Below are positions 7,758-24,251 of a DNA stretch of 64,000 nt, in pieces. Numbering within the stretch: the first letter of the stretch is position 1; the number at the start of each line of letters is the position of its first letter. The stretch is from positions 68,290 to 132,289 of the forward strand of contig CAKOYF010000001.1 in assembly GCA_934130595.1 (NCBI GenBank), read 5' to 3'. The notes beneath the pieces were generated by a model. That model had not been told where the DNA came from, searched no databases, and saw only the letters and a list, made by a program, of their open reading frames with translations. A program made the translations under genes and the position numbers. The stretch is from an uncultured Clostridia bacterium. Lineage in GTDB: Bacteria; Bacillota; Clostridia; TANB77; CAG-465.

Positions 7758-10532
7758 TTATTGTATATCGTCGGCAGCTCTTGCATCAATATCATAAAGT
7801 ATAACTGTTCCTTTTACAAAATCATATAATTGTTGTGAATCAATTATCCATATTCCTTTTTCAAGTTGTATTCTTAAACTTGAATCTTTATTTACTTCTT
7901 GACCAGGATTTGAAAATCCTAAATATCCTTCATAATCCCACTGTGTTGTATTTACTGCTGAGCTTGCTGATTTATTAAGTGTATTGTATGATATTGTTTC
8001 ATTTAGTTTTGAATCATAACATGTAATCTCAAATTTTACACCAATATATCCATCTGTTAATGCATTTTGAATACTATCACCATTTTTTACAGCTATTGTA
8101 GTATTTGGTAGTTTAAATTCTCCAAACCATGTTTGAATGTAACCAGTATCATCTAGTGCCATCATATTATCTTTTAAGTAAAATTCACCTGAACTATTAC
8201 CAATATTTAAAGATTCTAATTTTTTAGATAAATATGATGTATTTGAAGCATATAGATCATTAGTATATCTACTTCCGTCATCTGGAGTAAAATATATATT
8301 ATATCCGCTTCCAACAAACTTTTTATATTTATCTGTTTCATCTTTATAATATAATGTTATATCTTTAATAACCTGAGAACCATCCTTAGATAAATAGTAA
8401 TACGTTGGTTTTATCTTTATTTTTCTAGCTTCTACACCACTATTACTTGGCATATAATATCCACTTGTTTTTACATCAAAGGAAAATCTATATCCAAGTT
8501 TTGGAGCATTTATATATCCTGCTGTAGTATGTTTATATGGACCTAATGGTAATGTTCTAGTTGAAGTTGTTCCGTTTATTTTTAAATTATTTCTATCTAC
8601 TAATGCTGTATATTCTTTATTTGCATTTGTATATATGTACATTCTTCTAATTCCAGAATAATATCCAGAGTTCTTATCTAAAACATTGGTATCTGATTGT
8701 CTAAATGCACTCTTATATGCTAAATCTGAGCAATCTGATATTTTAAAATCATATATTTTAGATGCTGTTCTTACTGCTATTGTTTTCATTGCAAAATAGT
8801 ATCCATCACCATACATCTTCACTCCTCTTGTGTAGTTTGAGTCTGTATGTGATTCAGAAAACTCAATATCGTTTGAAAAATTAGCAGTATTATCTCCACT
8901 ATCTGTTATATATTTTCTTGATGTAGCATCTTGTGTTTTATCCATCTGAATAGCTACTTCTTGATCTACCACATTATATAGCAATTCATCTGATGGCATA
9001 TTAGAAGCAGAAGCAAGTATTACTATTTTATGATTAGAAGAATCTCTAGATAATGTTTCATTAGGTGCTACTTGTCCTCTAAAATATGTATATCCATCAT
9101 TATATTTTGCTTGGTTAGTCATTCTTATTGCTGTACCTTTAGTATATGTTTTTCCATTATGTACAACATCAAAATCAAAAATCAAATAATAGTAGTTAAC
9201 AAATGCAGCTTTTTGATTTGCAGTTATATTATTGTAATATGTAAAATCTAAATCTCCACAGCTAAGCTTTATTTCAAAGTTTGCATCATCTGCAAGTATT
9301 ACAGTTGATGAATTTACAACAGAATGATCAATTGTTGAGTTACTTGTAGTTGTAATTTGTGGATCATTTAATTTTACAGGAGTATATACATTTATATAAT
9401 GTTCATTAGTTGATTCATATTCTCTTGTTCCACCATATTCACCATTTAAAACATTATATTCTTGATATATAACATTTCCTTTAGCACTTCTTAATCCATT
9501 TAATACATTTGATTGTATTATAATGTTTGCTAAGAAGTCATCTGCTCCTGCATCATCCCCATCTGTTTTATCTATATCATTTTTTCCAGGGATAACTGTA
9601 GTCTTTTTATCATTATAATTGCTAACTAATCCATTTAATATATCTGTTATACTATCTTTATTATTTATAAATATTGGAGATGTGCTTCCAATTCCTGTTA
9701 TAGCTGCTGCAGGATCAGTATTATCTACCAATTTTCCTGTTATTTCTATTTGACCATTAGTACCTTTATGTACTGATTCAGAAGATTTTAAGTATGCTTC
9801 ATTAAGTCTATACACTACAAAGTTACTAACTTTATAGCTTACCTTACCGTCTTCCATAACCTTTTCGTATGATAAATCTTTTATAACATATTTAGGTGTT
9901 TTAAAATATGGTTTTAAAGATCCACCAGCTGGTATATATGTAACATTAGATTGTAATCCTGCATCGTTTCCATTCCAAACGTTAGTATTACTATATAGCT
10001 TTGGAGATATGTTGTCTACAACATCTTCATTATAATAAAAATCTATTATTGTTACATCATTATTGTTAGACTGTATTGTTGTATATTGAGCATTTGCTTG
10101 ACTATTATTATATTCAACATCTAATTGTGATGTACCCGCTCTTACTGATGCTTTTTTTTGCTCCATTACTGAATATGCATCATCTAAGCTTGGCATAGTA
10201 CATATGTTATATCCCAAATAACTATATTTTTTACCATCAACTTGCATAACAAGTGTTTTAGTAATTTCCATAGTTGCTGAGACTGAATAATTATAATATT
10301 CACTATATGATATTTCAGCATCATCTGATGTAGAATTATTTAATAGTGTACTTTTTCCAGAAGACTCTTTTACTTCTTGAGTATTATTTTGCAATCCATT
10401 TATTATTTCACCATTTGCCTTATTTATATGTCTTACAAAAACTTCTCTACCATTTTCATATGCGTATATTTTAGGTGCTAATATAATGTTAAAAGCAATA
10501 AGCAAGAAGATTAATATTACTTTTTTATTCAT
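7758..10532 (-). CDS. Large secreted protein, 924 aa, Sec signal peptide, no LPXTG. Last gene of the pilus-like operon; candidate tip adhesin or secreted cargo.
   Basis: ATG with an AAGGAGGA RBS. Signal peptide MNKKVILIFLLIAFNIILAPKIYA. Translationally coupled to the upstream gene (stop at 10534). Confidence 0.5.
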   Translation of the reverse strand: MNKKVILIFLLIAFNIILAPKIYAYENGREVFVRHINKANGEIINGLQNNTQEVKESSGKSTLLNNSTSDDAEISYSEYYNYSVSATMEITKTLVMQVDGKKYSYLGYNICTMPSLDDAYSVMEQKKASVRAGTSQLDVEYNNSQANAQYTTIQSNNNDVTIIDFYYNEDVVDNISPKLYSNTNVWNGNDAGLQSNVTYIPAGGSLKPYFKTPKYVIKDLSYEKVMEDGKVSYKVSNFVVYRLNEAYLKSSESVHKGTNGQIEITGKLVDNTDPAAAITGIGSTSPIFINNKDSITDILNGLVSNYNDKKTTVIPGKNDIDKTDGDDAGADDFLANIIIQSNVLNGLRSAKGNVIYQEYNVLNGEYGGTREYESTNEHYINVYTPVKLNDPQITTTSNSTIDHSVVNSSTVILADDANFEIKLSCGDLDFTYYNNITANQKAAFVNYYYLIFDFDVVHNGKTYTKGTAIRMTNQAKYNDGYTYFRGQVAPNETLSRDSSNHKIVILASASNMPSDELLYNVVDQEVAIQMDKTQDATSRKYITDSGDNTANFSNDIEFSESHTDSNYTRGVKMYGDGYYFAMKTIAVRTASKIYDFKISDCSDLAYKSAFRQSDTNVLDKNSGYYSGIRRMYIYTNANKEYTALVDRNNLKINGTTSTRTLPLGPYKHTTAGYINAPKLGYRFSFDVKTSGYYMPSNSGVEARKIKIKPTYYYLSKDGSQVIKDITLYYKDETDKYKKFVGSGYNIYFTPDDGSRYTNDLYASNTSYLSKKLESLNIGNSSGEFYLKDNMMALDDTGYIQTWFGEFKLPNTTIAVKNGDSIQNALTDGYIGVKFEITCYDSKLNETISYNTLNKSASSAVNTTQWDYEGYLGFSNPGQEVNKDSSLRIQLEKGIWIIDSQQLYDFVKGTVILYDIDARAADDIQ

Positions 10533-10533
10533 A

Positions 10534-11856
10534 CTATTCCTCCTTACTAACTATACTACTACTTGTTTTTACTGTCATAGAATTAATAGGTAATTCTTTT
10601 ACAAATAGTGTTTGTGATGTTTCGTTTTTATTCATTACTGTATCTATATAAATTGTTATTTGATTGCTATTATAACTTACTTTTGCTCCAGACAAATCAT
10701 AAAGTAGAATATTGTCTTTTGTATCTGATGATTCAATTACTATTTCAAGCTTTGTTCTTACTCTATAATTTTCGCCATCAAAATATACACAAGGCATTTG
10801 AACTGTTGCTTTTCCATTTAGTTTTATATGATTTTGCTTAACATATTCAACATATTCATCTATCATATCTTCATCTAATTGCTCTAATACATATTTTTTT
10901 AGTTTTCTTTTTACTTGTTCTTTGGTTATTGTATTATAATCTACTGTTAAAATATAATTATAATAATTTTCGACATAACTTTTTATTTGACTATAATATT
11001 GTTTGTTATTAGGATAATACTCTATTGGAGATATAAACTTTTCATTATTTTCATTTTTAAGCTCTAATTCATATACATCTTTTTGAACACTTGCTAATGT
11101 ATATGGGTACATATCTGCATTAGTAGGTATTTTTTCTGAATTAATATTTATTTTTGAATTTCCTACTGTTATTGTATTGTATTTTTCAGCAAAATTTACT
11201 ATTAATTCATTTAATTTACCTTTATATAATTTTCTTTTTCCATCAATTCTTTTAGTGTTTACTTCTATTACTCCCGAATTTAACAAATCATAAATTGCTA
11301 GTTGTTGATCTGTGTTATATGCATTTATATCTTTTACATCATAATTTGCTGAAGTATCTGGTTCTATATCTAATATTTTAGCTTTAATGTTATATAACCA
11401 AACTAATACTTCTTGATATTTAACTTTTTCGTCTGCATTAGAAGCGTTAACTTCTTCTCTTGTTACAATTCCTTGTTTTATTGCATATTCTACCCATATT
11501 GCATTTGAGTATGTTTCCTGAGTTGGAAGTGCAATTCCATCTATAGTAGGAACATTGTATAAGCATGATAAAATCATTTTAATTGCTTCAGATTTTGTAA
11601 CTTTATCTTTTGTATTGGCATCCCCATCATTATATACTTGTGAAAAGCCATATATATCCATCTTTTGTTCGTATTTTTTATACTTATTATAATTTATATT
11701 AGCTAAGGTGTAACCTAAATATATCATTACAGCTATAATTATTGCTAGAATAACAGATATTATTGTTACAACAATTCTATGTTTTTTATTACTCTCTTTA
11801 ACTTTTTTCTGTTGTTCTTCTTGATTTTTGTATGACGGAACAAACCCTTCCTCCAT
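10534..11856 (-). CDS. Membrane-anchored extracytoplasmic protein, 440 aa (single TM near residues 28-50).
   Basis: ATG with an AGGAGG RBS. Lies inside the operon. Confidence 0.5.
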   Translation of the reverse strand: MEEGFVPSYKNQEEQQKKVKESNKKHRIVVTIISVILAIIIAVMIYLGYTLANINYNKYKKYEQKMDIYGFSQVYNDGDANTKDKVTKSEAIKMILSCLYNVPTIDGIALPTQETYSNAIWVEYAIKQGIVTREEVNASNADEKVKYQEVLVWLYNIKAKILDIEPDTSANYDVKDINAYNTDQQLAIYDLLNSGVIEVNTKRIDGKRKLYKGKLNELIVNFAEKYNTITVGNSKININSEKIPTNADMYPYTLASVQKDVYELELKNENNEKFISPIEYYPNNKQYYSQIKSYVENYYNYILTVDYNTITKEQVKRKLKKYVLEQLDEDMIDEYVEYVKQNHIKLNGKATVQMPCVYFDGENYRVRTKLEIVIESSDTKDNILLYDLSGAKVSYNSNQITIYIDTVMNKNETSQTLFVKELPINSMTVKTSSSIVSKEE

Positions 11857-11888
11857 TTAGATCACACCTCCTCTTTTTTTATTATACA

Positions 11889-13067
11889 CTATGGATTACA
11901 AATTGGACAAGGATAAAATCCTGTAAATGTTGTCTTAACACCATTTAGCGTACCTGTTGTTACAGATGTAGCCGCTTCTTGTCTAGATGTAACATATCTA
12001 GGTGACATATTCTTTATCTCACTTAGTTTATATTCTGGACAATTTATATCCTTATGATAAAGATTCATTTTTATTTGTGAATCTTTATTCGGTACTGTAA
12101 AGTAATATCTAGTTTTATTTTCTAATGTAGCTGTTCCAAAAGCTTTCGTATTTAGATATTTATTACCTACAGAAATACCTTGTACAAAAGCAATTATTCC
12201 TACACCATCTACCATGTTATATAGTTCATCTTCTGTTGTTGCTGGAAAAGAAAAAGAATATACCACTCCAGCTTGTCTAGCATATAGATTATTTTCATTA
12301 ACAGCATAAGACATCTCATTAGATACTACTTCTGCTATTATTGATGACCTTGTATCTTTCAAATGTGTTACTATTTGTGATTTTAAACTTTGTTTTACCT
12401 CACTATCTACAACACCTGCTACTAATTCATCATTATTATTTGAATCTCCTAAATAAAAACTTTGAGCTTCTATATCTTCATCATATAAGTAATTGTATCC
12501 TCTATGTGTTACTCTATCGTCCATAGTAAACTCAATAGTATGAATTGATACAACATTAGAAGTTTCTGTACCAGGTACCATCTTATACTCTCCATTTGAT
12601 CTTACAATTGAATATGTATATGTAAAATATCTTTTAGGTTTTAAAACTCTTTGAACTGAACTTGTACCATCACTAGCATTTACTGTTTCGTTTTTAGATA
12701 CTCGTACACCATCATATTCAACTACGGCAACAGCAGGAACAAAAAGGTTAAAATATGATTCTGCTGTTTCATTACCTTCTATTCCTAATGTATTATACAT
12801 AGCATTAAAGAAAGAATCTACTCCAACTTTTGCATTTACGTTTATCTTTTTATTGTTTGAATCTGAATATCCATAGTCTATGCTCTTATCTTGGCTTTCT
12901 ACTTGTTTCATTTCATATGCTGCATCTTCTAGAGCTGAATCTATAACTCTTTGATAATACATTTCCATTTCTTCAGCTTTTATTGTAAATGTAACATTGA
13001 TATATAACACTAACATAAACGGTAATATTATTGCTATAAAAACTAAAGCAAAATCTGTTATTTTCAC
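11889..13067 (-). CDS. Membrane-anchored extracytoplasmic protein, 392 aa, N-terminal TM.
   Basis: GTG start with an AGGAGGTG RBS. N-terminal hydrophobic segment ALVFIAIILPFMLVLYI. Confidence 0.5.
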   Translation of the reverse strand: MKITDFALVFIAIILPFMLVLYINVTFTIKAEEMEMYYQRVIDSALEDAAYEMKQVESQDKSIDYGYSDSNNKKINVNAKVGVDSFFNAMYNTLGIEGNETAESYFNLFVPAVAVVEYDGVRVSKNETVNASDGTSSVQRVLKPKRYFTYTYSIVRSNGEYKMVPGTETSNVVSIHTIEFTMDDRVTHRGYNYLYDEDIEAQSFYLGDSNNNDELVAGVVDSEVKQSLKSQIVTHLKDTRSSIIAEVVSNEMSYAVNENNLYARQAGVVYSFSFPATTEDELYNMVDGVGIIAFVQGISVGNKYLNTKAFGTATLENKTRYYFTVPNKDSQIKMNLYHKDINCPEYKLSEIKNMSPRYVTSRQEAATSVTTGTLNGVKTTFTGFYPCPICNP

Positions 13068-13078
13068 CTTTTCACCTC

Positions 13079-14083
13079 CTATATCTCTGGTATAGTAATT
13101 GAACTATTTATTTTTATTACTATTTCTTGTGAACTTGCACTTGCATTTTTAGAGAATTTTCCTTGAATAACATTAGCTGGTAAGAAACATTTAAAATTAT
13201 TGTATTCATTATTTAAGAAATATGTCTTACTCTTAGTGTCATCTAATGTAAATTTAACTATATATTCTCCCTCACCACTTTCTTCAATTGAAGAAGGAGA
13301 TACAAAGCAATTAGGTGCTGTTCCCACAAGTCTTATATTATCTCTTATTTTTCCTACAAGATTTGTATCGTCTGCATTTAATATTTGAACTTTGAATGTT
13401 AAAATTCTATCTTTAGCAACATCAAAACTATATTCTGGATTTCCATTTACATTTGGCTCATTTCCATCTTGTAAATTTATTTTAATCAATATATCACTTT
13501 GATATAATTGGCTTATTTCTGTGTTTTCCCAGTTGTTATTTTTAATAGTTGCTCCATAAGTAATGTTTATTTTTTCCTTACTTGCTCCTCCTACTATAAC
13601 ATTTAATAATGAAGAAGCCATTGTTGTATTAGTATTTTTTACTGTAACATAAAACTTATCTCCTACATCAAGGAAAAAAATATCATTTTTCAAACTATTG
13701 TCTTTGTCTATTATATTACTTGTTTTTCCAGTCTCATCATTAAAAATATCCTTGTTATAATATGATTTATACTGTTCTACATAAGTTTCATTTCCTTCAT
13801 CTGGATTAGTATTTGAAGGATCTACTGTTAATACTTTCTTTTTAGCCTCAACTTGAATATCATATGAGTTTCCAGTTGTACCAAGTCTTTGTATAAATTT
13901 ATCATACATATCTTGGTCTATATAACCATTTTGCGCTACTTCATCTACAAACATTGTAACTGTTTTTAAAGTTAAGTTATATGACATATCATCTTGTCTT
14001 TCAAAATAGTTATATAAAGGAAGAAGTACTAATAATATTACTAAAAATATTACAGCCACAATCATACTAAGTGTATCCTTCAT
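13079..14083 (-). CDS. Large pilin-like (pseudopilin) protein, 334 aa; paralogue of 14992..16563.
   Basis: ATG with an AAGGAGGA RBS. N-terminal hydrophobic helix IVAVIFLVILLVLLPLY, then the shared motif ..DDMSYNLTLK...NGYI..DMYDKFIQRL..T.NSYD seen in 14992..16563. Confidence 0.5.
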   Translation of the reverse strand: MKDTLSMIVAVIFLVILLVLLPLYNYFERQDDMSYNLTLKTVTMFVDEVAQNGYIDQDMYDKFIQRLGTTGNSYDIQVEAKKKVLTVDPSNTNPDEGNETYVEQYKSYYNKDIFNDETGKTSNIIDKDNSLKNDIFFLDVGDKFYVTVKNTNTTMASSLLNVIVGGASKEKINITYGATIKNNNWENTEISQLYQSDILIKINLQDGNEPNVNGNPEYSFDVAKDRILTFKVQILNADDTNLVGKIRDNIRLVGTAPNCFVSPSSIEESGEGEYIVKFTLDDTKSKTYFLNNEYNNFKCFLPANVIQGKFSKNASASSQEIVIKINSSITIPEI

Positions 14084-14098
14084 TTTATTCCTCCTTTT

Positions 14099-14563
14099 TT
14101 ACCACTGCTCTTCAAGTTCTTCATCTGTAGCTTTTATTATATTTATATAAGTTGTATTTTCATTAGTGCTCTTATCTACAGTAAGTATATATTTATTATT
14201 CATACCAATCTTATTTATTGCCTCTTTATATGTTAAAGTTTTGCTATCTAACATAAGTGGTGTTTCATTTTTTGTTGATAAATTAATATTTACCACAACA
14301 TCATTATTAACAGTATCGTCTGAATATCTGTCTTTTTTTATATAATTATAATAATACGATAAAACTTCTTGTCCTGTTAAAATCAAGTGCCTATTTACTT
14401 CTCCTGTTACAGTTACTGCATCATTAGATTGCTGATGCATGTAATCATAAGCTTCATCTGTATAATTCATCAGCGATGAAAATAAGAAAATAGTTAAAGA
14501 TAAAGCTATAACAAAAATCATAGTATATATACCAATGTAAATAGCCTCATTTGCATTTTCCAT
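14099..14563 (-). CDS. Small pilin-like protein, 154 aa, class-III-like signal peptide.
   Basis: ATG with an AGGAGGTG RBS. N-terminus MENANEA|IYIGIYTMIFVIALSL. Confidence 0.5.
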   Translation of the reverse strand: MENANEAIYIGIYTMIFVIALSLTIFLFSSLMNYTDEAYDYMHQQSNDAVTVTGEVNRHLILTGQEVLSYYYNYIKKDRYSDDTVNNDVVVNINLSTKNETPLMLDSKTLTYKEAINKIGMNNKYILTVDKSTNENTTYINIIKATDEELEEQW

Positions 14564-14574
14564 ATTTTCACCTC

Positions 14575-14979
14575 CTATATTTTAGTAAAACTAATTTTTG
14601 TTTTCATTAATCCATCATATTCAACTTCTTCAACTTTTGATTTATATTTGTCTTCATATTTTAAAATGCCATTATTATATTGGTCATTTAGATAATTTAT
14701 TCCATTTTCATCATTAACGCTAAATCCATTGTATTCAACTACAACTAAATTTTCTTTGTAATATTTATTTGCACAATTTATTACATCTAGTCCTGTAACC
14801 TCTGTGTTATCATAAGAAGCATACTTTCCAAATCTAGCTGTTATAGATGTGTCTGTTGAGTTTACTTGTTTATATACTCCTTTCATTTGGGAAAATATAA
14901 ACATTATTCCTGAAATTATAATAACTGTTACAAATATTCCAACGCCAAACATTAATGCTCTATTTGCTGATTCTCCCAA
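14575..14979 (-). CDS. Small pilin-like protein, 134 aa, class-III-like signal peptide.
   Basis: TTG start with an AGGAGGA RBS. N-terminus MGESANRA|LMFGVGIFVTVIIISG. Confidence 0.5.
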   Translation of the reverse strand: MGESANRALMFGVGIFVTVIIISGIMFIFSQMKGVYKQVNSTDTSITARFGKYASYDNTEVTGLDVINCANKYYKENLVVVEYNGFSVNDENGINYLNDQYNNGILKYEDKYKSKVEEVEYDGLMKTKISFTKI

Positions 14980-14991
14980 ATGTTTTTCCTC

Positions 14992-16563
14992 CTATTCTAT
15001 TCCATATCTTTGTTGATCTATTTTAAAGTTTTCTTTTATTTCTTCTTCTGTTAAAGCTCTATCGTATATTCTTACACAATATATAGTTCCTTTAAATTGA
15101 GTATTAGCACCAGCGCCTGCAAGTGGACTTCCACCAATTACTAAGTTAGTGCCTGTTGCAGCATTTACCATTTCAGTATTAAATGGTATACCATCAACAT
15201 TACCATTAATTCCTAATAATTGTGCACTAGTTTCATATGCAAATTTATCTCCACCTAAAGTTAAGTCCATCTTTCCTACAGATCCAGCTATTGAATATAT
15301 TTTATTAGCTTGCATTATTGTACCATCTGAAACAACTGAAGATAAATTATTTCCTGTTTTATTTGTATAAACATCAAAAGATATTTTTCCTCTTTTTGAG
15401 ACACTTGTAGAATTTAATTGGTTAAATACTATTCCAGCGCCTCCATTATTTAAGCAACTTACTATAGATTGTTCTGAAGTGTCAGGATCTGTTACACTAT
15501 CTAACTTCATTACAACTTCTATAGTCATCTCTGAGAAATTAAATTCTTTTAATGATACATACTCTTTTCCTGTAAAATGTAATCCATTGTATATCCATCC
15601 AGATTCATCATTAAAATCAAAACCAGATAATGTGGCATTATTTCCATTACCACTAAGATCTTTCCAAATATTAGCTGAATTTGAATGAACTGTTCCATCA
15701 TTATACTCACCATTTAATAGAACAACAAGTCCGTTTGTAATATATGAGTTAACTAAAGAACTTGTATTTTCAGAACCTGGTGTATTAGTGCTTTCGTTAT
15801 AGTTTTGGTTATCATCATTTACAGTCTTGTCTCTATATGTTTCAGCTTTTACAGTACCTCCGTAATTTACATATATTCTAGTATTATTTTGACTTGATGC
15901 TCCAAAAGTAATTAAATTATATATTACACTTGCCATAGTTGTATTTTTATTTTTTACTATTACGCTAAACTCGTCGCCTTCATTCATTGTATATACTTGA
16001 GTGTTACTTTCTGGCATATATATACTTGTAATTGCAGGTAAATTTCTAAAATCAATACCTTTATATACATCTAGTGATGTTTTTACAGTAAGAGTTCTAT
16101 CTGTTGAACTAATTACATCTAATATTTGCTTCTCATTATATTTTTTTTCAGATAAGTCATAAGCTAGTACTAAATTATTATATGTTCCTGCATTTACTCC
16201 TTCATTTACAACAATTTGGTTATTTTCATATTGTTCTTTATATAAATTATAATCAAATTTTGCTCTAATTGTAGATAAGTCATCTGTATATGAATATATA
16301 ACAGGATTATATTTTTTTGCTGTATGCTCCATATATACATCATAACTATTTTGAGTTACTGCTAGTTTTTTTATAAAATCACTGTACATTTCTGATGTTA
16401 TATAGCCTTTAGCATTAACATTATCAACAAAATCAGTTGTTATTTTTAGTGCTAAGGCATAAGATATATCATCTTTTTTTTCATAAGCTATATATACTGG
16501 CAATATAAAAAGTATAACAACAGCTATTAGTACTGAAACTACTTTTTGTAAAATTCCATCCAT
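14992..16563 (-). CDS. Large pilin-like protein, 523 aa, with a C-terminal LamG/concanavalin-like jelly-roll domain. Candidate lectin-type minor pilin or tip adhesin.
   Basis: ATG with an AAGAGGGG RBS. N-terminal helix VVSVLIAVVILFILPVY. The C-terminal half resembles a LamG-like domain (..WKDLSGNGNNATL.GF.F....W..NGL.F.G..YV...). Confidence 0.5.
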   Translation of the reverse strand: MDGILQKVVSVLIAVVILFILPVYIAYEKKDDISYALALKITTDFVDNVNAKGYITSEMYSDFIKKLAVTQNSYDVYMEHTAKKYNPVIYSYTDDLSTIRAKFDYNLYKEQYENNQIVVNEGVNAGTYNNLVLAYDLSEKKYNEKQILDVISSTDRTLTVKTSLDVYKGIDFRNLPAITSIYMPESNTQVYTMNEGDEFSVIVKNKNTTMASVIYNLITFGASSQNNTRIYVNYGGTVKAETYRDKTVNDDNQNYNESTNTPGSENTSSLVNSYITNGLVVLLNGEYNDGTVHSNSANIWKDLSGNGNNATLSGFDFNDESGWIYNGLHFTGKEYVSLKEFNFSEMTIEVVMKLDSVTDPDTSEQSIVSCLNNGGAGIVFNQLNSTSVSKRGKISFDVYTNKTGNNLSSVVSDGTIMQANKIYSIAGSVGKMDLTLGGDKFAYETSAQLLGINGNVDGIPFNTEMVNAATGTNLVIGGSPLAGAGANTQFKGTIYCVRIYDRALTEEEIKENFKIDQQRYGIE

Positions 16564-16564
16564 A

Positions 16565-17032
16565 TTATACCCCTCTTATTGTTATTACTTTAGATCCTAA
16601 ATCAGTATCTACATCTTCTACGCTAATTGTAAAATCCTGATTATCCATAATATATCTCAAAGCTCTATTATATGAGCTTTCTCTAATGTTCATTTCTTTT
16701 GAATCCATTACAACTGAATCTAATATTTGAATATTTCCATTTTTATCTAAATACTTAATATTATATGCATTAACGCTAACATTAACGTTATCCTCATAAT
16801 AATTAAAAAGATTAATTACACTAGTTCCTTTAATGTAATTTCCAGTATTACTCATAAGAAGAGTAGATTCAATATCATGTCTATAGATATTTCCAAAGTT
16901 TTTACCTGAACCAGCATTTTTTACTATATTTAAACTTGAATTAAAAAATATTATAATTGCTGATACAGTCATAACTCCAACTAATGTTGTAACACCTATC
17001 ATTATTGCTTTTGATAGATTGTCCTCATCCAT
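16565..17032 (-). CDS. Small pilin-like protein, 155 aa, class-III-like signal peptide.
   Basis: ATG with a GAAAGGAGGAG RBS. N-terminus MDEDNLSKA|IMIGVTTLVGVMTVSAIIIF. Confidence 0.5.
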   Translation of the reverse strand: MDEDNLSKAIMIGVTTLVGVMTVSAIIIFFNSSLNIVKNAGSGKNFGNIYRHDIESTLLMSNTGNYIKGTSVINLFNYYEDNVNVSVNAYNIKYLDKNGNIQILDSVVMDSKEMNIRESSYNRALRYIMDNQDFTISVEDVDTDLGSKVITIRGV

Positions 17033-17117
17033 TCTACTCTCCTCCTTTCGTTATATAAACATATGTTAAAGCATATATTTTGATACACTCTAAAATATGT
17101 CTATATATAATGTTCAA

Positions 17118-17143
17118 GGTATATAACTAAAAAATTATATACC
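17118..17143 (-). terminator. Intergenic stem-loop (9 bp stem) directly downstream of the first pilin gene. Possible partial terminator or attenuator.
   Basis: GGTATATAA-ctaaaaaa-TTATATACC. No clean U-tract. Confidence 0.3.
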
Positions 17144-17171
17144 CTGAAATTATTCATAATTTATATATCTT

Positions 17172-17660
17172 TTATTTTTCTCTAGTAAATAATATTCCTA
17201 ATACAACGTCTCCACTTGTGCTTTTAATAAGTTGTGCTTTATATCTGGCAGAAGCTGGTACATATGTAGAAGTGTTAGAGCTATCAGATAAAGTACTTAC
17301 TTTAGCTTGTGCATGACTTGAATCATAGCTTAAAGCTTTGTCTATTGAAACTGTTCCGTTTCCTCTAACTTTTCCTAGTTCAAGTATATCTCCACCAACA
17401 ATTGGTTGAACTTCAAGGATCATACTTTGATCTGTATTATATAATTGAACTGTAGAAACAACTTTTGCTCCTGTAACTACAACATCATCATATTCTTGTG
17501 TTAGTTGTTGTTGTAGTGCATCAGATAAATTTGTAACTTTGTTTGTTGCATTGTTAATTAAGTTTATAGCTGGATTAACTATTAACATTACAGCAGCTAT
17601 AATTAAAATTGTTACAAATAATCCAACACCTATCATTATTGCTTTTTGTGCATTATCCAT
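17172..17660 (-). CDS. Pilin-like protein, 162 aa, class-III-like signal peptide. First pilin gene after the platform gene, so a candidate major subunit.
   Basis: ATG with an AAGGAGGAATATAA RBS. N-terminus MDNAQKA|IMIGVGLFVTILIIAAVMLIV, archaellin-like (compare A.GIGTLIVFIA). Confidence 0.55.
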   Translation of the reverse strand: MDNAQKAIMIGVGLFVTILIIAAVMLIVNPAINLINNATNKVTNLSDALQQQLTQEYDDVVVTGAKVVSTVQLYNTDQSMILEVQPIVGGDILELGKVRGNGTVSIDKALSYDSSHAQAKVSTLSDSSNTSTYVPASARYKAQLIKSTSGDVVLGILFTREK

Positions 17661-17715: not shown

Positions 17716-19770
17716 CTAAAACGCCATTTGACTAAAATAATTTAACATTTGTAGTATACTTACTATTAATAGTGGTGCTACTAAATATCCACCTATTAGC
17801 AAGACCATAGGAGTAAATCCTAAAACCTGTCCTATAGAAGCTTTTCTTTTAACTAGATTTTCATTTGCATCTTTTCTCTTTTCATAGAAAAATGCTCTTT
17901 CTGTTTCTAACTCATCAAAAGCTGCTTTTACAGGTATTCTTGTTACAGCAGATTCCAATTGTTCAATTATTCTCTGGAAATCTTTGTTTGGAACTGAATC
18001 TTTTAGCTCTTCAAGTGCTTCTTCAGCTCCTGCTTCATAGTTATTTAAGCATGTTGCTATTGGTTCTCTAAATGCGTATGAGAATCTACATAGCCACTCT
18101 AATATTGTCTGTACATCTACTCTATCAATGTGCATAAGCATTAAAATTATTGACTGAAATTGCATTATTTCATTTTCTTTATCCATTTTTCTTACACTAT
18201 TTTTTATAGTTAAGATTAAATTTGGTATATGATATGCTATCACTGCAACACCTAATGCTATTAAAACATGCCAAAACTTAATATATGAATCATTTATTGT
18301 TGTTATTTTATCATAAATTCTATCTACAGCATCAGTATCAACAGTTCCTGTAGATTTATCTGTTAGACTTTCAGCTAATTCTTCTTTAGATACATTTTTA
18401 TTCTTGTATTTTTGAATATATCCTAAGTCAAATTTTGCTATTTCATCTGCTGCAGCTTGATCTTCTGTACTTAGTTTTCCAAGAGATAAGAACTCATTAC
18501 TTAGTTTTGTATAAGCTGCATTTTTAGTTATAATATTCATATTTAATATTAAAAATATTGTAAGTACAAAACCTATAAGTGCATAAGTTAATTTATTTAC
18601 ATATAGCCACTCTATGGTTAAATATGAATTTGTATCTTTTATTAAATTAACTTCTTTTTTATATTTAGCTGTATGTTGCCTTGTTTTAAAAGCATCTACA
18701 ATGGTTCTTACAAAATTTATTTTATATAATTTTTCTTGCCATTTTACTTTTGAAACTCTATCAAATTTTATTTCTTCTCCATCTTCTCTTAAAACTCTAA
18801 GTAAGATGTATGACATAAATATTGATATTATAATTAATGATTGCATCACAAATCCTATACTACTACTATAAAAATTCGATAGTGCAGCAAAGTTATTTGT
18901 AGCCCATGATTCAATAGGTTTAATAAATATAAGTGGTATAACAGCTATTACTGTTAAACTTCTAAAAGTATTTTTTAATTTGTCTTGTTTTAATATTTCA
19001 AGATATATTTCATTTAATATATTATTTAGATTTTTTAGGTAGATAGATGTATCTTCTATTTTTCTATCACCTAATTCATATGTTAAAAATGAAATTCCTG
19101 CAAATAATTTTAAGAATCTATTTGGAGCAGTATCATAATATCTTTCAAGCTCAACTTCTGGCTGATCAGATATTATTGCTTCTCTTATTCTTTTTAGTTG
19201 TGGAGCAATTTCTTTCTCACTCATTTCATCTATAGTATCAGATAATGCTTCATCAACCATTCCATGCTCATGAAAAGCATGTCTTAGTGTAGTAAACGCT
19301 TCTGGCATCTGTCTTAATATTTTATTTGAAACAGATGTAATTGTTATATCTGTAACTTTTTCTACGACAATAATAAGTCCTATCATTATTATTAATGTCA
19401 TATATAAATCATTTACTACATTTACAAATATTGCTAAAGCCACAAACATAACAATCAACGTCAAAGTCATTAGTCTACCTGTATTTCTTCTAAGTTCATA
19501 CTCAGAATAATCATTTGACATTTCATATTTTAGTCTTATTTTTTTAGCATAATATTTGATTAACGGCATTTTTACAAAAGTCATATACATTACTTGGTAT
19601 AATTTATCAAAAGTCTCTTTAAAATTAACTTTATTTTTTACAACTAATGTATCTTTTGCTTGTAAAATTGAATTGTTACTATACCTTCTTTTTAATACAG
19701 CATAATAAATTAACAAACTTGCAAGGCCAATTACAGATACAACAACTAATGCAATTGCTATATTTGTCAC
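17716..19770 (-). CDS. Inner-membrane platform protein of the GspF/TadB-TadC family, 684 aa. Fused two-domain architecture, as in archaeal TadC/FlaJ.
   Basis: GTG start with a GGAGGTG RBS, 5 nt after the ATPase stop. About 7-8 predicted TM helices arranged as two blocks, each followed by a large cytoplasmic domain. Confidence 0.6.
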   Translation of the reverse strand: MTNIAIALVVVSVIGLASLLIYYAVLKRRYSNNSILQAKDTLVVKNKVNFKETFDKLYQVMYMTFVKMPLIKYYAKKIRLKYEMSNDYSEYELRRNTGRLMTLTLIVMFVALAIFVNVVNDLYMTLIIMIGLIIVVEKVTDITITSVSNKILRQMPEAFTTLRHAFHEHGMVDEALSDTIDEMSEKEIAPQLKRIREAIISDQPEVELERYYDTAPNRFLKLFAGISFLTYELGDRKIEDTSIYLKNLNNILNEIYLEILKQDKLKNTFRSLTVIAVIPLIFIKPIESWATNNFAALSNFYSSSIGFVMQSLIIISIFMSYILLRVLREDGEEIKFDRVSKVKWQEKLYKINFVRTIVDAFKTRQHTAKYKKEVNLIKDTNSYLTIEWLYVNKLTYALIGFVLTIFLILNMNIITKNAAYTKLSNEFLSLGKLSTEDQAAADEIAKFDLGYIQKYKNKNVSKEELAESLTDKSTGTVDTDAVDRIYDKITTINDSYIKFWHVLIALGVAVIAYHIPNLILTIKNSVRKMDKENEIMQFQSIILMLMHIDRVDVQTILEWLCRFSYAFREPIATCLNNYEAGAEEALEELKDSVPNKDFQRIIEQLESAVTRIPVKAAFDELETERAFFYEKRKDANENLVKRKASIGQVLGFTPMVLLIGGYLVAPLLIVSILQMLNYFSQMAF

Positions 19771-19774
19771 TTTA

Positions 19775-21673
19775 TCACCTCCAAGCCATATCTAAGAATT
19801 CATCAAAAGCTTTTATATCTTCTGCAGACATATTATCTCTCATTGCTTTAATGTTTTCTTCGCTAATAGGATTTTTAAATACATATTTTCCATCAACAAA
19901 TTCTACGATGTTTCTATATGTATAGTTTTTACTTTGTGTCATATGTTGAAAATATTCAACAGCATTATCCATAAACTTGTCTAGTTTTTGATTTACATCT
20001 TTTACTTTTCTATAATCATTATTATATGTATATGTTTGCTCTAATGGAATACATTCTGTTATTCTTTCAATGTATCTAGTACCATCTACAGCTCTTTTTA
20101 AATGTATATCAAAGTTTATAACTTGAACAACCTGTACTTCTGCAACTTGTTCAGAATTGAACATTCCAATTTTTAATAATGAGTTTCTAAGTGATGTTAT
20201 TAAGTTTGGAAATGTCTTTGCATGGTGTGTAAATAATGTAAATTTAGATGCAACCTGTGCCATCTGAATCATCCAAGCAGCAACTGGATCAGTTGCAACC
20301 TCTCCTAATATGTTTACACCACCATCTGTTTTCTTTTGAACATCTAGTCCTTCTTGTCCTGTTATAGTATCTGTTTCTCTTAAAGATAAGATGTTATGAT
20401 ATGGATAAATTTTTCTTAAGTGTAATTCGAATGCAGTTTCCTGTACACGAATTGTTATTGTTGGATATAAGAATTTCATTATAGCCATCAATAATGTAGT
20501 TTTACCACAACCCTGCTCACCAGTTATTGCAGTAACTCTGGCTCCTCTAATTAAATATTTTAATAACTCTACAACATTTTCTTTATTTTCATGAACAAGT
20601 AATTGTTCAGGTGAAATTAATGTAGGTGGAGCAAATTTTCTAACAAAAAAAGCCCAAGATTCAGAGAAGTTTGGTCTAAGAACAACAACTCTGGAACCAT
20701 CTTTCATTTCATTTATTTTATAACCAACAGACTCAGATAACTGTCCTGGGTTATTATATTTGTATATGTTTTGACATACTCTTTTTAACTCTGCTTCACT
20801 ACCAAAAGATAAGAAAGATAAATATGTAGCTTTACCTTTATAGAATATCCATACAGAATCATATGACATTGGTATTTTAGCTTCATTCATTTGTGTTAAG
20901 TAATCATCAATATCACTTAACTGATCTAGGAATGATGGTGGAATACCTGATACACCACCTGATACACCATCAATATTCATATCTCTTATATCATCTACGA
21001 CGCTATATCCTTTATATTCTTGGTATATTCTTTGTACTACTATCTCTAGCTTGTCTTCAAATGAAAGTGTTTCAGTTGAAACTTCATTTGTAAATATATC
21101 ATCAATCTCTTTTGCTGTAATTACATATGAAGGTACTGTAGCATCAAATTCATATTTTGGATAATCTAGAGCGTACTTTGTTATTATCTTTGTTAAAGCT
21201 TCTGCTTTATATGTTTTCTTGTAAATATGCATTAATATTTCAAATTTATCTTGTGATGTTAATTCATTAAAGTTATTAAATGGAATTGCATAGTTAATAT
21301 TAAAGTTATTTACTTTATAATCATTCTTTAGCAAATCAAACATTAATGATTTTACATACTTTTTATCATTTGAATCAGCATATCCGGCACCTTTTAAAGC
21401 TCTCTTTAATTCATATTTAACATTTTTTCTTCTTTCAAATTCTTCTTCAGATAATGCTAAATCATACAAATTCATTCTAGTAATTTCATCAAATTGCTTT
21501 TTTATATAATTTTGCATAGTAGAAAGACTATATGTTGTCTTTTCTCTTGTTAAACTATCTTCTACCATTTGGTCTGCACCAGATTTTTTTACTTTGTAAT
21601 AGAAAAACGCTGCTACAAATGCTAATAAAAGAAGTATTAACAAAATATTAAATACAAATGCAACTGACATCAT
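19775..21673 (-). CDS. Secretion/pilus ATPase of the TadA/CpaF/FlaI type (VirB11 superfamily), 632 aa, with an N-terminal TM anchor.
   Basis: Walker A GEQGCGKTT, Walker B and a His-box (THHAKT). No tetracysteine zinc motif, so not a GspE/PilB type. N-terminal helix VAFVFNILLILLLLAFVAAFFYY. Confidence 0.7.
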   Translation of the reverse strand: MMSVAFVFNILLILLLLAFVAAFFYYKVKKSGADQMVEDSLTREKTTYSLSTMQNYIKKQFDEITRMNLYDLALSEEEFERRKNVKYELKRALKGAGYADSNDKKYVKSLMFDLLKNDYKVNNFNINYAIPFNNFNELTSQDKFEILMHIYKKTYKAEALTKIITKYALDYPKYEFDATVPSYVITAKEIDDIFTNEVSTETLSFEDKLEIVVQRIYQEYKGYSVVDDIRDMNIDGVSGGVSGIPPSFLDQLSDIDDYLTQMNEAKIPMSYDSVWIFYKGKATYLSFLSFGSEAELKRVCQNIYKYNNPGQLSESVGYKINEMKDGSRVVVLRPNFSESWAFFVRKFAPPTLISPEQLLVHENKENVVELLKYLIRGARVTAITGEQGCGKTTLLMAIMKFLYPTITIRVQETAFELHLRKIYPYHNILSLRETDTITGQEGLDVQKKTDGGVNILGEVATDPVAAWMIQMAQVASKFTLFTHHAKTFPNLITSLRNSLLKIGMFNSEQVAEVQVVQVINFDIHLKRAVDGTRYIERITECIPLEQTYTYNNDYRKVKDVNQKLDKFMDNAVEYFQHMTQSKNYTYRNIVEFVDGKYVFKNPISEENIKAMRDNMSAEDIKAFDEFLDMAWR

Positions 21674-21683
21674 ATCACCCCTC

Positions 21684-22496
21684 TTACTCTTTTATTTTTA
21701 ATATTTTTACTATTTCCTCTACTATTTCTGTTGCCCTTAGCATAAACTCACCATTATAATCTTTTGCTGGAGCGTTTATATTTCTGTATAAAAAGTCTAA
21801 GACATTACCATCATTACATGCATCTGTAAATAAATAGTTATGTGGAAGTACGTAACATGGTTCTGGAATTTTGTACTTTAATTTAACATTAAAAATATTA
21901 TACTTAGATCCAGACTCATAATCTCCTAAAACAAATATTTTTTGTTTATCTTTTAAGCTATCTATACTATTAAGTTTCTTTAATACGTTATTCAATTTTT
22001 CTATTTCCTGAGGAATTACACACACTATAATGTCTGACTGTTCCATTACTCTTATTGCACTATCATCAGTAGTAGTCTTAGGTAAGTCTATAAACACTAA
22101 GTCATATACTTCATCTGCATTTTTAGCAATTAGTGGCATGCTAATTAAATTTTCTCTTTTTTCTGTTGTTGTATTAGCTATGGCACTATAAAGTATATCT
22201 AATCTTCCTTTTAATACAGGCTTTGAATAGTTTTGAATTATGTCCGGTGACAATTTATTACTCTTAATTAAACGCATTATTGCATTCATACCAAGATTAG
22301 TATCATTAAAACTATTTGCATTTACTAAATCATCATACATAGTAAATGATGAAGCTATTTTTTTAGCATTTGAATTTGCATCTATTAAAAGAGAAGATGT
22401 TTTATGTGTTATTCCCATTAGAGAACTAATAGCAATAGCAGTATGTGTACATCCACTTTTTCCCTCTTCTGGACTCCAAAATACAATCTTTGCCAT
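21684..22496 (-). CDS. ParA/MinD-family ATPase, TadZ/CpaE-like, 270 aa.
   Basis: N-terminal P-loop-like SPEEGKSGCT and Walker-B-like DLVFIDLP. RBS AGGAGGAG. Confidence 0.5.
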   Translation of the reverse strand: MAKIVFWSPEEGKSGCTHTAIAISSLMGITHKTSSLLIDANSNAKKIASSFTMYDDLVNANSFNDTNLGMNAIMRLIKSNKLSPDIIQNYSKPVLKGRLDILYSAIANTTTEKRENLISMPLIAKNADEVYDLVFIDLPKTTTDDSAIRVMEQSDIIVCVIPQEIEKLNNVLKKLNSIDSLKDKQKIFVLGDYESGSKYNIFNVKLKYKIPEPCYVLPHNYLFTDACNDGNVLDFLYRNINAPAKDYNGEFMLRATEIVEEIVKILKIKE

Positions 22497-23204
22497 TTAA
22501 TTTCTCCTCCTTTTTATTTCTTTTAATACTTCTTTAGAAGAAACATCTCCTAATATTCTAGAAATATACTCACATAAGTACAATATATATGTTTTTGTAT
22601 GTTTTCTTAAATCTATAAGTCCACTGAATTGTGAATCTATATTAACCATCATATCTTGTTCATCAGTACTAATATCATAAACCTCATCTGTCCACTTAAC
22701 TGCATAATTATTTATTTTTTCTTCTAAATAATTTGTTGCTGCTCTAGATAAGTATGCTCTATATAAAATCTTTGAAAATACTAATTCTTTATCTGGATTT
22801 TCTTCTCTCATTTTATGTACAAGTTCATCATTTTTTGTTACTGATATAACATTAGTATCTATATACATATATGATTTATCTACTTGTAAATCTTTAAATT
22901 TAGCGTACGTATTTGCATCCTCTATATCTATTAAGACATAATTATATAATTTAAGATCTATATTCTTTTCACTTAAATATTTTTCTAATGAATCGTATGA
23001 ATCAAACCCAACTGCAAAGTCTATATCCGCATATCTAGTTACATATTCTGAGCTATTATCTATAGTTGGTACTATACATTTATATTTTTTATCTGATGTA
23101 GCATCAATTACTAATACAGATTTTCCCATAATATTTAAAGCTCTAGCTGTTGCAATTACAAAGTCATATTTATCTACATATCCATACATTCCAATTACTT
23201 GCAT
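22497..23204 (-). CDS. ParA/MinD-fold protein with a degenerate P-loop (likely pseudo-ATPase), 235 aa.
   Basis: N-terminus VIGMYGYVDKYDFVIATARALNIMGKSVLVIDAT aligns to ParA-family architecture but lacks the GKT/S lysine. Confidence 0.4.
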   Translation of the reverse strand: MQVIGMYGYVDKYDFVIATARALNIMGKSVLVIDATSDKKYKCIVPTIDNSSEYVTRYADIDFAVGFDSYDSLEKYLSEKNIDLKLYNYVLIDIEDANTYAKFKDLQVDKSYMYIDTNVISVTKNDELVHKMREENPDKELVFSKILYRAYLSRAATNYLEEKINNYAVKWTDEVYDISTDEQDMMVNIDSQFSGLIDLRKHTKTYILYLCEYISRILGDVSSKEVLKEIKRRRN

Positions 23205-23219
23205 TTAAACTACCTCCTA

Positions 23220-24251
23220 CTATTTTCCTTCTAATAAGTTTTCTCTTTCAGTTTGTTGCATAATAATAGATTGTTGTGCTCCTGTAACTACATTTTCGTA
23301 ATCATCACTATTTTGTGATTTGTAGTTTTTGATTCCACTTTCTATTGTAGATCTTGACTCAGCATTTAATCTTGAAAGCTCAGTACTTGCATTTTTTAGT
23401 AAATATTGGTTTGATTTCATAGCACTCATAACATAAGTATTTGGTTGATAGTTTTGTGTTGTTTTTGTTGAAGCATTTGCAAAGTTTTTATATTTATATA
23501 TATAATCATATAATTTAGTTGCTGCTTCAGTTACATCCATCTTTTTAAGTTCATCCCAGTCTTTTTCAATAACTGTTTCAAGATATCCTTTTGTTTCACT
23601 TTCAATATCTGAAGATGTTTTAACTTGAGCATCACTATCTGTATATCTTAAAGCATATAATTTAGATCCACTGTTTAAGAAAGAATCAACTACTGCACTG
23701 TTTAATAGTTGGATTTCATCCTCAGATAATTTCATCCAGAAAGTTGTGTCATATATTTTATCTATGTTCTTTTGTGCAAGAACTATGTAATCTGTTCCAT
23801 TAGGATACATTATTCTAATATCTACAGTATCTCCCTCAACAAGATCACTAGGCATAAGAACTGTATTTATTTCAACGTCTCTTACATCAGCAGCTACAAC
23901 TTCATCACTTACCATATCTCCTGTAATAGGCACTTTTGCAGCTATATTATATTTTGCACTTAGTCCAACAACACTTCCTGAAGATACAACTCCTGTTGGT
24001 ACTGTATGATTGTTTACATTTACAGTTTCAATCATATCTGCAGTTATAATTTCTCCTTGTACAACGTTTCTTTTTAAAACAACTACTGGTGTAGTATAGT
24101 TTTTAATATAATTTTTGTTTGTTCCATCTTTATATGATTTTATAGTAAAGAAAGAAAATACACTTACACCAACGGCTACAACGATTCCAACACTAGCTCC
24201 AATCAATATACCTTGTATTGTTTTCTTTTTAATTTGACTCATTCCTATCAT
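23220..24251 (-). CDS. CpaB/RcpC-like pilus assembly protein (N-terminal TM plus SAF domain), 343 aa. First gene of the operon.
   Basis: TM helix ILIGASVGIVVAVGVSVFSFF followed by a SAF-like segment (VVVLKRNVVQGEIITADMIETVNV). RBS GGAGG. Confidence 0.5.
   Translation of the reverse strand: MIGMSQIKKKTIQGILIGASVGIVVAVGVSVFSFFTIKSYKDGTNKNYIKNYTTPVVVLKRNVVQGEIITADMIETVNVNNHTVPTGVVSSGSVVGLSAKYNIAAKVPITGDMVSDEVVAADVRDVEINTVLMPSDLVEGDTVDIRIMYPNGTDYIVLAQKNIDKIYDTTFWMKLSEDEIQLLNSAVVDSFLNSGSKLYALRYTDSDAQVKTSSDIESETKGYLETVIEKDWDELKKMDVTEAATKLYDYIYKYKNFANASTKTTQNYQPNTYVMSAMKSNQYLLKNASTELSRLNAESRSTIESGIKNYKSQNSDDYENVVTGAQQSIIMQQTERENLLEGK

Follow-up and report, generated by a model that had tools for sequence, protein, structure and literature searches.

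The nearest described counterparts of the gene analyzed here are the platform genes of bacterial Tad/Flp (type IVc) systems, in which TadB and TadC (CpaG and CpaH; PF00482) are encoded by two separate genes and each carry one T2SSF domain (PMC6668835). A review of type IV pili in monoderm bacteria likewise describes two paralogous platform proteins in the Tad (type IVc) systems it covers. Denise et al. 2019 (PMC6668835) concluded that an ancestral tandem-domain gene underwent fission to give TadB and TadC; the Tad systems as a group go back to archaeal pili of the Epd-like type (PMC6668835). A pair of T2SSF domains within a single chain is found in the PilC/GspF proteins (PulF) of type IVa pili and of systems for type II secretion, the presumed trimeric partners of the ATPase hexamer, but these proteins are approximately 400 amino acids (aa) in length with 3 transmembrane (TM) segments and lack N-terminal regions of the TadB/C type. 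The archaeal proteins FlaJ/ArlJ and the archaeal pilus protein PilC/'TadC' likewise combine two T2SSF domains with several TM segments in one polypeptide; in these archaeal platforms the N-terminal domain aligns best with TadC and the C-terminal domain with TadB (PMC6668835). Here we describe a gene from a 64,000-nucleotide (nt) stretch of DNA of an uncultured Clostridia bacterium (contig CAKOYF010000001.1), referred to below as the window. Its 684-aa product most likely forms the platform, in the inner membrane, of a divergent Bacillota filament machine of a Tad-like (type IVc-like) kind, with the counterparts of TadB and TadC predicted to be joined in a single chain.

The platform gene and its family

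Coordinates are those of the window (1-64000), and all genes of the cluster lie on the minus (-) strand. The fused platform gene (17716..19770, (-)) has a GTG start and a stop codon at 17716-17718, and no internal stop was found when the 684-codon open reading frame (ORF) was read. At the junction with the upstream ATPase gene the minus strand reads GGAGG-TGA-TAAA-GTG, so that the ATPase stop codon TGA (19777-19775) is followed by a 4-nt spacer and then by the platform GTG (19770-19768). The GGAGG ribosome-binding site (19778..19782, (-)) abuts the ATPase stop codon and, because this consensus sequence is found 7 nt upstream of the GTG, the start of the platform gene is well supported. The platform gene is tightly translationally coupled to the CpaF-like ATPase gene. 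An initial annotation of this DNA, made from the sequence alone, had described a single 684-aa platform protein with its GTG 5 nt after the ATPase stop; the ORF is intact and its length is conserved across the family, and the count of 5 nt is right when made to the first base of the GTG. Public data hold an identical protein (P0001, 90-member cluster).

HMMER, run exhaustively against 1.84 billion representatives clustered at 50% identity, recovered 1025 of them at E≤1e-3, of which 541 reached E≤1e-30. Full-length platform homologues among the 150 listed of these 1025 were approximately 640–700 aa in length, shorter entries covering part of the profile, and the full-length proteins among the best 120 homologues were 684–687 aa. 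Related loci were located with a shallow alignment (A1) and their gene order was checked by tblastn. Across 62 related loci the platform ORF measured 669–693 aa, and the commonest spacing placed its start 4 nt past the ATPase stop (33 of the 62). The cluster order was kept in 73 species-level genomes of uncultured gut Clostridia, the carriers including Clostridium sp. CAG:921, CAG:1219, CAG:465, and CAG:452. The long platform gene is also carried by finished plasmids of isolates, namely those of Thermobacillus composti (690 aa, 36% identical to the window protein), Butyrivibrio proteoclasticus (665 aa), and Clostridium botulinum (p12/29, 669 aa). Homologues of the ATPase with 49–65% identity were found on plasmids of Paenibacillus, Cohnella, Lysinibacillus, Sporosarcina, and Alkalihalophilus. 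In the related-locus and ATPase-homologue searches the fused-platform family was seen only in Bacillota, where gut Clostridia carry it on their chromosomes and Paenibacillus, Lysinibacillus, Clostridium, and Butyrivibrio on plasmids. Searches of the accessible literature for a fused TadBC protein, or for the cluster, including on the named plasmids, turned up no account of either.

The length of the protein is unusual for a bacterial Tad platform, and this is the one feature that could point to a sequencing or assembly artefact, or to a pseudogene-like read-through, merging two real genes. A frameshift or assembly artefact was rejected, as the same length recurs in the 1025 representatives, the 73 genomes, and the 3 finished plasmids, and the junction is conserved in frame within an ORF that is continuous throughout the family. 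The frameshift or sequencing error hiding two genes that the initial annotation had considered is thus not what is found, and we give an artefact of this kind practically no credence.

Two modules and their order

Hydropathy analysis of the 684-aa protein indicated approximately 8 TM segments. TM hairpins span residues 97–145 and 394–523, and each is followed by a helical region of approximately 122 aa that is rich in K/R and D/E (residues 146–267 and 524–645). An AlphaFold2 (AF2) model based on 107 diverse homologues was all-helical, with a predicted local distance difference test score (pLDDT) of 90.9 and a predicted template modelling score (pTM) of 0.84; this alignment superseded a first run with 13 close homologues (pLDDT 61.5). 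Two TM blocks, each with a large cytoplasmic domain, had been proposed in the initial annotation and match both the hydropathy profile and the AF2 model. Based on the positive-inside rule, the domains at 146–267 and 524–645 and the basic stretches at 29–96 and 329–393 are predicted to be cytoplasmic, and the uncharged loop at 291–303 and the acidic, indel-rich segment at 418–498 are predicted to lie outside.

Homology was assessed against a reference set of 14 TadB/TadC proteins from annotated plasmid Tad loci, located via their ATPases. The set contained TadB/TadC pairs from Rhizobium etli, Serratia, Burkholderia, and Cellulosimicrobium, and platform-position gene pairs from plasmids of Thermoanaerobacterium, Bacillus thuringiensis, and C. 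botulinum; 9 of the 14 proteins are positive for Pfam T2SSF. Large searches started from TadB and TadC alignments brought back relatives from Rhizobium/Sinorhizobium almost exclusively, and the reference profiles were not deepened. When the family profile (A2, a 107-sequence alignment) was compared with the 14 proteins by hhalign, residues 65–330 matched with a probability of 97.6% (E 3.7e-12) over 253 columns, nearly the whole of TadB, and a second run reproduced this top match (96.9%, E 1.5e-10). Residues 513–661 gave a separate match (94.2%, E 1.2e-7) that did not overlap the first. Each half taken alone also matched TadB/TadC, the N half at 98.1% (E ~1e-13) and the C half at 95.2% (E 2.8e-8); column-reversed reference profiles of the same composition gave 0.9% and 7.4%. 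Against the 9 Pfam-validated T2SSF proteins the N half matched at 96.9% (E 1.4e-10), with controls at 0.5–0.6%. The two hhalign matches and the failure of the reversed controls support the view, put forward in the initial annotation, of one polypeptide with two GspF/T2SSF modules serving as the platform of a Tad-like locus. From these profile comparisons, the protein is predicted to contain two modules of the T2SSF superfamily that are too divergent for curated hidden Markov models (HMMs) and for repeat detection.

Several results weigh against this interpretation. No match to Pfam T2SSF, to TadB_TadC_N, or to an NCBIfam T2SSF model was obtained with the whole protein or with either half, even at E≤10, and the two copies of a T2SSF HMM match anticipated in the initial annotation were therefore not seen. 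Sequence-profile searches of the PDB with the shallow A1 and the deep A2 alignments gave only chance matches, and Foldseek found nothing in the PDB at E≤0.001; the PDB holds no full-length TadB, TadC, or FlaJ, its coverage of platform proteins consisting of small GspF fragments and one PilC model. The internal repeat that had been anticipated was likewise not significant, the N half and C half giving P values of 0.003–0.08 in three hhalign designs. The match of the C half to the 9 Pfam-validated proteins was moderate (59.6%, E 8.9e-5; controls 0.5–0.6%), and the case for T2SSF status of the C module is partly transitive, running through Bacillota proteins that Pfam does not detect either.

The absence of Pfam, NCBIfam, PDB sequence, and Foldseek matches, together with the insignificant repeat, is what would be expected if the gene encoded an unrelated polytopic membrane protein that happens to stand beside a CpaF-like ATPase gene, the hhalign matches then being artefacts of helical and TM composition. 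The matches lie, however, mainly in the soluble cytoplasmic domains, in the right register with the flanking TM segments, and extend over 148–324 columns. The reversed controls gave E values of 0.005–0.13, compared to 1e-7 to 1e-13 for the true profiles. The N and C modules each match their positional counterpart only, and the gene is found at the exact position of a Tad platform gene and is translationally coupled to the ATPase gene. We therefore consider an unrelated membrane protein very improbable.

The two modules of the predicted platform can be told apart by their similarity to TadB and to TadC. In hhalign comparisons the N half scored 81.9 with TadB and 36.5 with TadC, and the C half scored 51.1 with TadC and 41.4 with TadB. 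The direction was the same when only diderm and actinobacterial seeds were used (47.3 vs 38.8 for the N half and 34.7 vs 21.2 for the C half). The closest detectable relatives of the protein are the split platform genes on Bacillota plasmids (C. botulinum pOsaka2020-1, Thermoanaerobacterium pTHETHE01, and a B. thuringiensis plasmid), and comparison with these gave the clearest evidence on module identity. On pOsaka2020-1 the first gene past the ATPase (Cbot_1, 298 aa) matches the N half only (88%), and the second (Cbot_2, 359 aa) matches the C half only, end to end (97.8%, E 6.6e-13, 324 columns). The two Thermoanaerobacterium genes show the same division, Thet_1 pairing with the N half (77%) and Thet_2 with the C half (78%). 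With small profiles, the C half matched 'gene 2' at a probability of 98.1% (E 6.5e-14, 321 columns) and the N half matched 'gene 1' at E 2.9e-5; the cross-pairs (N half with gene 2, C half with gene 1) were insignificant. The order TadB-then-TadC follows from these results. The 684-aa protein is accordingly predicted to combine two full-length units, the first TadB-like and the second TadC-like, in an arrangement colinear with the genes tadB-tadC.

The split plasmid platforms are accompanied by shorter ATPases (412–491 aa), whereas the fused form always occurs with ATPases of approximately 600–640 aa. Like the fused protein, most of the split genes escape Pfam T2SSF. No Pfam T2SSF match was obtained for the genes of B. 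thuringiensis (L079 6058-7915) and C. botulinum (L080 5855-7850) or for the second Thermoanaerobacterium gene (L076 6836-7759), nor for the fused plasmid homologues of 690, 665, and 669 aa. The Pfam T2SSF model thus seems to under-detect Bacillota Tad platforms generally. Because the fused family and several of the split Bacillota genes escape this model, surveys of type IV filaments that rely on HMMs probably give too low a count, or wrong scores, for the systems of gut Clostridia and of Bacillota plasmids.

The modules can be placed on the gene as follows. The N module (TadB-like, approximately residues 1–335; 18766..19770, (-)) starts with TM1 and a basic cytoplasmic stretch, followed by the TM2-TM3 hairpin, a helical domain in the cytoplasm, and TM4-TM5. 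Its T2SSF-like helical domain (residues 146–267; 18970..19335, (-)) aligns with the T2SSF region of R. etli TadB, is helical in the AF2 model, and forms a conserved block. The inter-module junction (approximately residues 329–365; 18676..18786, (-)) is variable and basic and coincides with a dip in model confidence, with a pLDDT of approximately 60 at residues 331–340. Column entropy is raised at residues 321–380, one of the more variable parts of the family alignment, which separates two conserved blocks. The C module (TadC-like, residues 346–684; 17719..18735, (-)) comprises a cytoplasmic lead-in, TM6, an indel-rich loop of approximately 80 aa, TM7, a cytoplasmic helical domain, and a long C-terminal TM segment; the loop is probably extracellular. 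The second T2SSF-like helical domain (residues 524–645; 17836..18201, (-)) falls within the hhalign match of residues 513–661 to TadB/C positions 124–274 and is the most conserved block of the family.

Compared to the Tad/Flp systems, each module aligns by profile over nearly the full length of its counterpart, and the fused gene lies directly downstream of a CpaF/TadA-like ATPase gene and in the company of SAF/CpaB-like and ParA/TadZ-like genes. It differs in that one fused gene throughout the family takes the place of separate tadB and tadC genes, that the protein is undetected by any curated HMM, and that the C module has an extra loop of approximately 80 aa between its hairpin helices. The system differs further in its ATPase, which is membrane-anchored and approximately 200 aa longer, in its pilin-like proteins, which lack the Flp G/XXXXEY motif, and in having no TadV peptidase in the locus.

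Origin of the fused chain and a proposed motor

The fused platform most likely originated by re-fusion of neighboring tadB-like and tadC-like genes in the bacterial Tad lineage, an interpretation we hold with considerable confidence and for which the archaeal domain order is taken from the literature. In such an event, loss of the stop codon between the adjacent tadB-like and tadC-like genes would have yielded a single chain. A secondary fusion in Bacillota is likelier than an archaeal-type gene because of the module order, the existence of split relatives, the CpaF-like ATPase, and the distribution of the family in Bacillota only.

The initial annotation had likened the protein to archaeal TadC/FlaJ. 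An archaeal-type two-domain platform (FlaJ/archaeal 'TadC'-like) that was retained or horizontally acquired, and never split into TadB and TadC, would account for the presence of two T2SSF-like modules and numerous TM helices in one polypeptide. It would also accord with the archaeal Epd-like ancestry of Tad systems (PMC6668835) and with the N-termini of the pilin-like proteins of this locus, which are class-III-like (basic residue at −2, Ala at −1) and have neither Glu5 nor a Flp motif; archaeal filament subunits such as Haloferax PilA3/PilA4 similarly have class III signal peptides without Glu5. The resemblance to archaeal platforms is one of architecture only, in the single chain with two modules; the order of the modules and the affiliation of the ATPase speak against an archaeal-type gene. 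The arrangement in the fused platform, with the N module closest to TadB and the C module closest to TadC, is the reverse of that reported for archaeal platforms by Denise et al. It is also the reverse of the trend seen in an order test with E. coli GspF/HofC, which leaned weakly toward N~TadC and C~TadB with too few sequences to discriminate; the family profile itself did not match GspF/HofC significantly (E 0.085). The modules have the full length of TadB and TadC, and the nearest relatives are adjacent separate genes on plasmids of Clostridium and Thermoanaerobacterium. In a PDB search the best solved relative of the ATPase was bacterial CpaF (E 1e-8, residues 274–549), compared to E 0.11 for an archaeal GspE-type protein. 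The ATPase and accessory genes appear to be of the bacterial Tad type, among them one for a SAF/CpaB-like protein, and the family was found in Bacillota only. Taken together, these data make an archaeal-type gene improbable. Archaeal platform genes were also sought on Haloferax pHV4, where the pilins PilA3 and PilA4 were found but no PilB or PilC.

Further points must be set against the interpretation of the protein as a re-fused Tad platform. The assignment of the modules to TadB and TadC was made with small profiles of 4–6 seeds. The direction of change, fusion as opposed to fission, is drawn from parsimony and from one paper's statement on the archaeal domain order. No prepilin peptidase (TadV/CpaA, Peptidase_A24) was found among the ORFs scanned in the 64-kb window, and every member of the family is known from sequence alone.

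The ATPase encoded upstream of the fused platform (CpaF/TadA-like, 632 aa; 19775..21673, (-)) has an N-terminal TM helix and an extension of approximately 270 aa before the ATPase core. Its matches to Pfam T2SSE (E 6e-4) and to TIGR03819 are below cut-off; its homologues are named TadA/CpaF in RefSeq. The protein opens with the TM helix MMSVAFVFNILLILLLLAFVAAFFYY, and the ATPases of 58 of the 62 related loci have such a helix at the N-terminus. Membrane anchoring is, to our knowledge, unusual among type IV filament ATPases. In the Thermobacillus locus (L074 11269-13101) a longer ORF of 637 aa extends the protein N-terminally by a TM helix resembling that of other family members, and the RefSeq start of this ATPase (610 aa) is probably too far downstream.

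In Caulobacter the platform has been modelled as a trimer of CpaG-CpaH heterodimers (bioRxiv 10.64898/2026.02.24.707734), and PulF is described as trimeric (PMC10790770). By analogy with PilC/GspF/TadBC, the fused platform would oligomerize, probably as a trimer, so that six cytoplasmic T2SSF domains would dock into the hexameric ATPase. Movements of the platform driven by ATP would then extract pilin-like subunits from the membrane into the growing filament, as in the analogous machines. Fusion would fix a 1:1 stoichiometry of the two modules and, together with the N-terminal membrane anchor of the ATPase, should result in a permanently assembled motor. A 2026 preprint proposes that fission of the platform let Tad/Epd ATPases invert and drive retraction (bioRxiv 10.64898/2026.02.24.707734). 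We speculate that the fused, tethered motor works in one orientation and supports extension only. Equally speculative is a role in adhesion in the gut Clostridia lineage and in mediating cell-cell contact where the cluster resides on plasmids.

A large Bacillota family in which TadB and TadC are joined again would mean that the fission is reversible. The protein would also offer a natural single-chain TadBC of fixed stoichiometry for structural and mechanistic work, including on the need for separate chains in ATPase inversion and retraction. A more far-reaching possibility, which we regard as tentative and rather less than likely, is that the clusters represent an undescribed branch of Bacillota type IV filaments in which the TadB/TadC fission has been reversed, with an anchored ATPase, a motor of one orientation, [KR]-Ala class III signal peptides, and a non-canonical peptidase. 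Such a branch would be invisible to Pfam and NCBIfam models and presumably to the platform models of MacSyFinder; if real, it would supply a natural counter-example for the proposal that platform fission and ATPase inversion underlie retraction.

Surrounding cluster and its genomic setting

The fused platform gene lies within a co-oriented conserved cluster in the order SAF/CpaB-like gene, two ParA/MinD-like genes, ATPase, fused platform, and pilin-like and further genes. The SAF-domain CpaB/RcpC-like protein (343 aa; 23220..24251, (-)) has an N-terminal TM segment and matches Pfam SAF (E 3.7e-8); its match to TIGR03177 pilus_cpaB (E 9e-6) is below cut-off. Two adjacent ParA/MinD-like genes (270 and 235 aa; 21684..23204, (-)) occupy the position of TadZ, show a weak match to CpaE_hom_Actino (E 0.004), and are syntenic in 68 loci. 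A Thermobacillus homologue of the ParA/MinD-like gene is annotated ParA; neither of the two proteins reaches a Pfam family threshold.

Downstream of the platform gene, at 14099..17660 (-), are genes for four pilin-like proteins of 162, 155, 134, and 154 aa (17172-17660, 16565-17032, 14575-14979, and 14099-14563, all (-)) and for a 523-aa LamG-domain protein whose N-terminus is hydrophobic. All four pilin-like proteins share the N-terminus M(D/E)NA(S/Q)KA(L/I)xIG, followed by approximately 20 hydrophobic residues. These N-termini contain neither the Flp G/XXXXEY motif nor Glu5, with no Glu/Tyr at +5/+6, and no Flp or TadE Pfam match was obtained among the proteins of the cluster. In a sequence comparison with putative cleavage sites they resemble archaeal class III signal peptides, for example those of Haloferax PilA3/PilA4 ('...ESRA-VSPVIGVILMV'); in the 162-aa protein, cleavage would be expected to follow the Lys-Ala. 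In the related locus L060 (12056-15960) the pilin-like paralogues number about 9, with the motif variant ...xI(A/G)G. By Pfam, the larger multi-TM ORFs of the window are SecD, SecF, SecY, and DAGK; a 128-aa multi-TM ORF has no A24 match.

Further conserved genes of the cluster (7758..14083, (-)) encode proteins of 334, 392, and 440 aa with N-terminal TM segments and a 924-aa protein with a signal peptide, a predicted secreted protein that is a weak homologue of a Thermobacillus DUF5704 protein. The 523-aa LamG protein (14992-16563, (-)) and the 334-aa protein (13079-14083, (-)) are paralogues. Together with a 184-aa Thermobacillus protein (L074 16135-16689), they share a conserved motif at the N-terminus, a hydrophobic helix followed by P-x-Y...E(K/R)xDDxSY, and the 523-aa and 334-aa proteins may constitute a cluster-specific class of minor pilin or adhesin.

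The clusters of Thermobacillus pTHECO01 (L074), Butyrivibrio pCY186 (L082), and C. botulinum p12/29 (L083) are carried on large plasmids. They adjoin a coupling-protein or relaxase gene, or genes for NlpC/P60, amidase, and cell-wall hydrolase proteins, and these neighbors hint that the plasmid-borne clusters function in transfer or in contact between cells. The cluster in the window is chromosomal and lies between a gene for a PBP5-type carboxypeptidase and genes for SpoIID, an M23 peptidase, and MreB. The minus strand carries nearly all long ORFs of the window, which has a negative GC skew over its whole length and a GC content of approximately 28%. The housekeeping content of the window includes SecDF, SecY, FtsH, DnaB, EF-Ts, S2, YqfD, and SpoIID, and these features are consistent with a piece of chromosome on the leading strand from a spore-forming Clostridia lineage of low GC.

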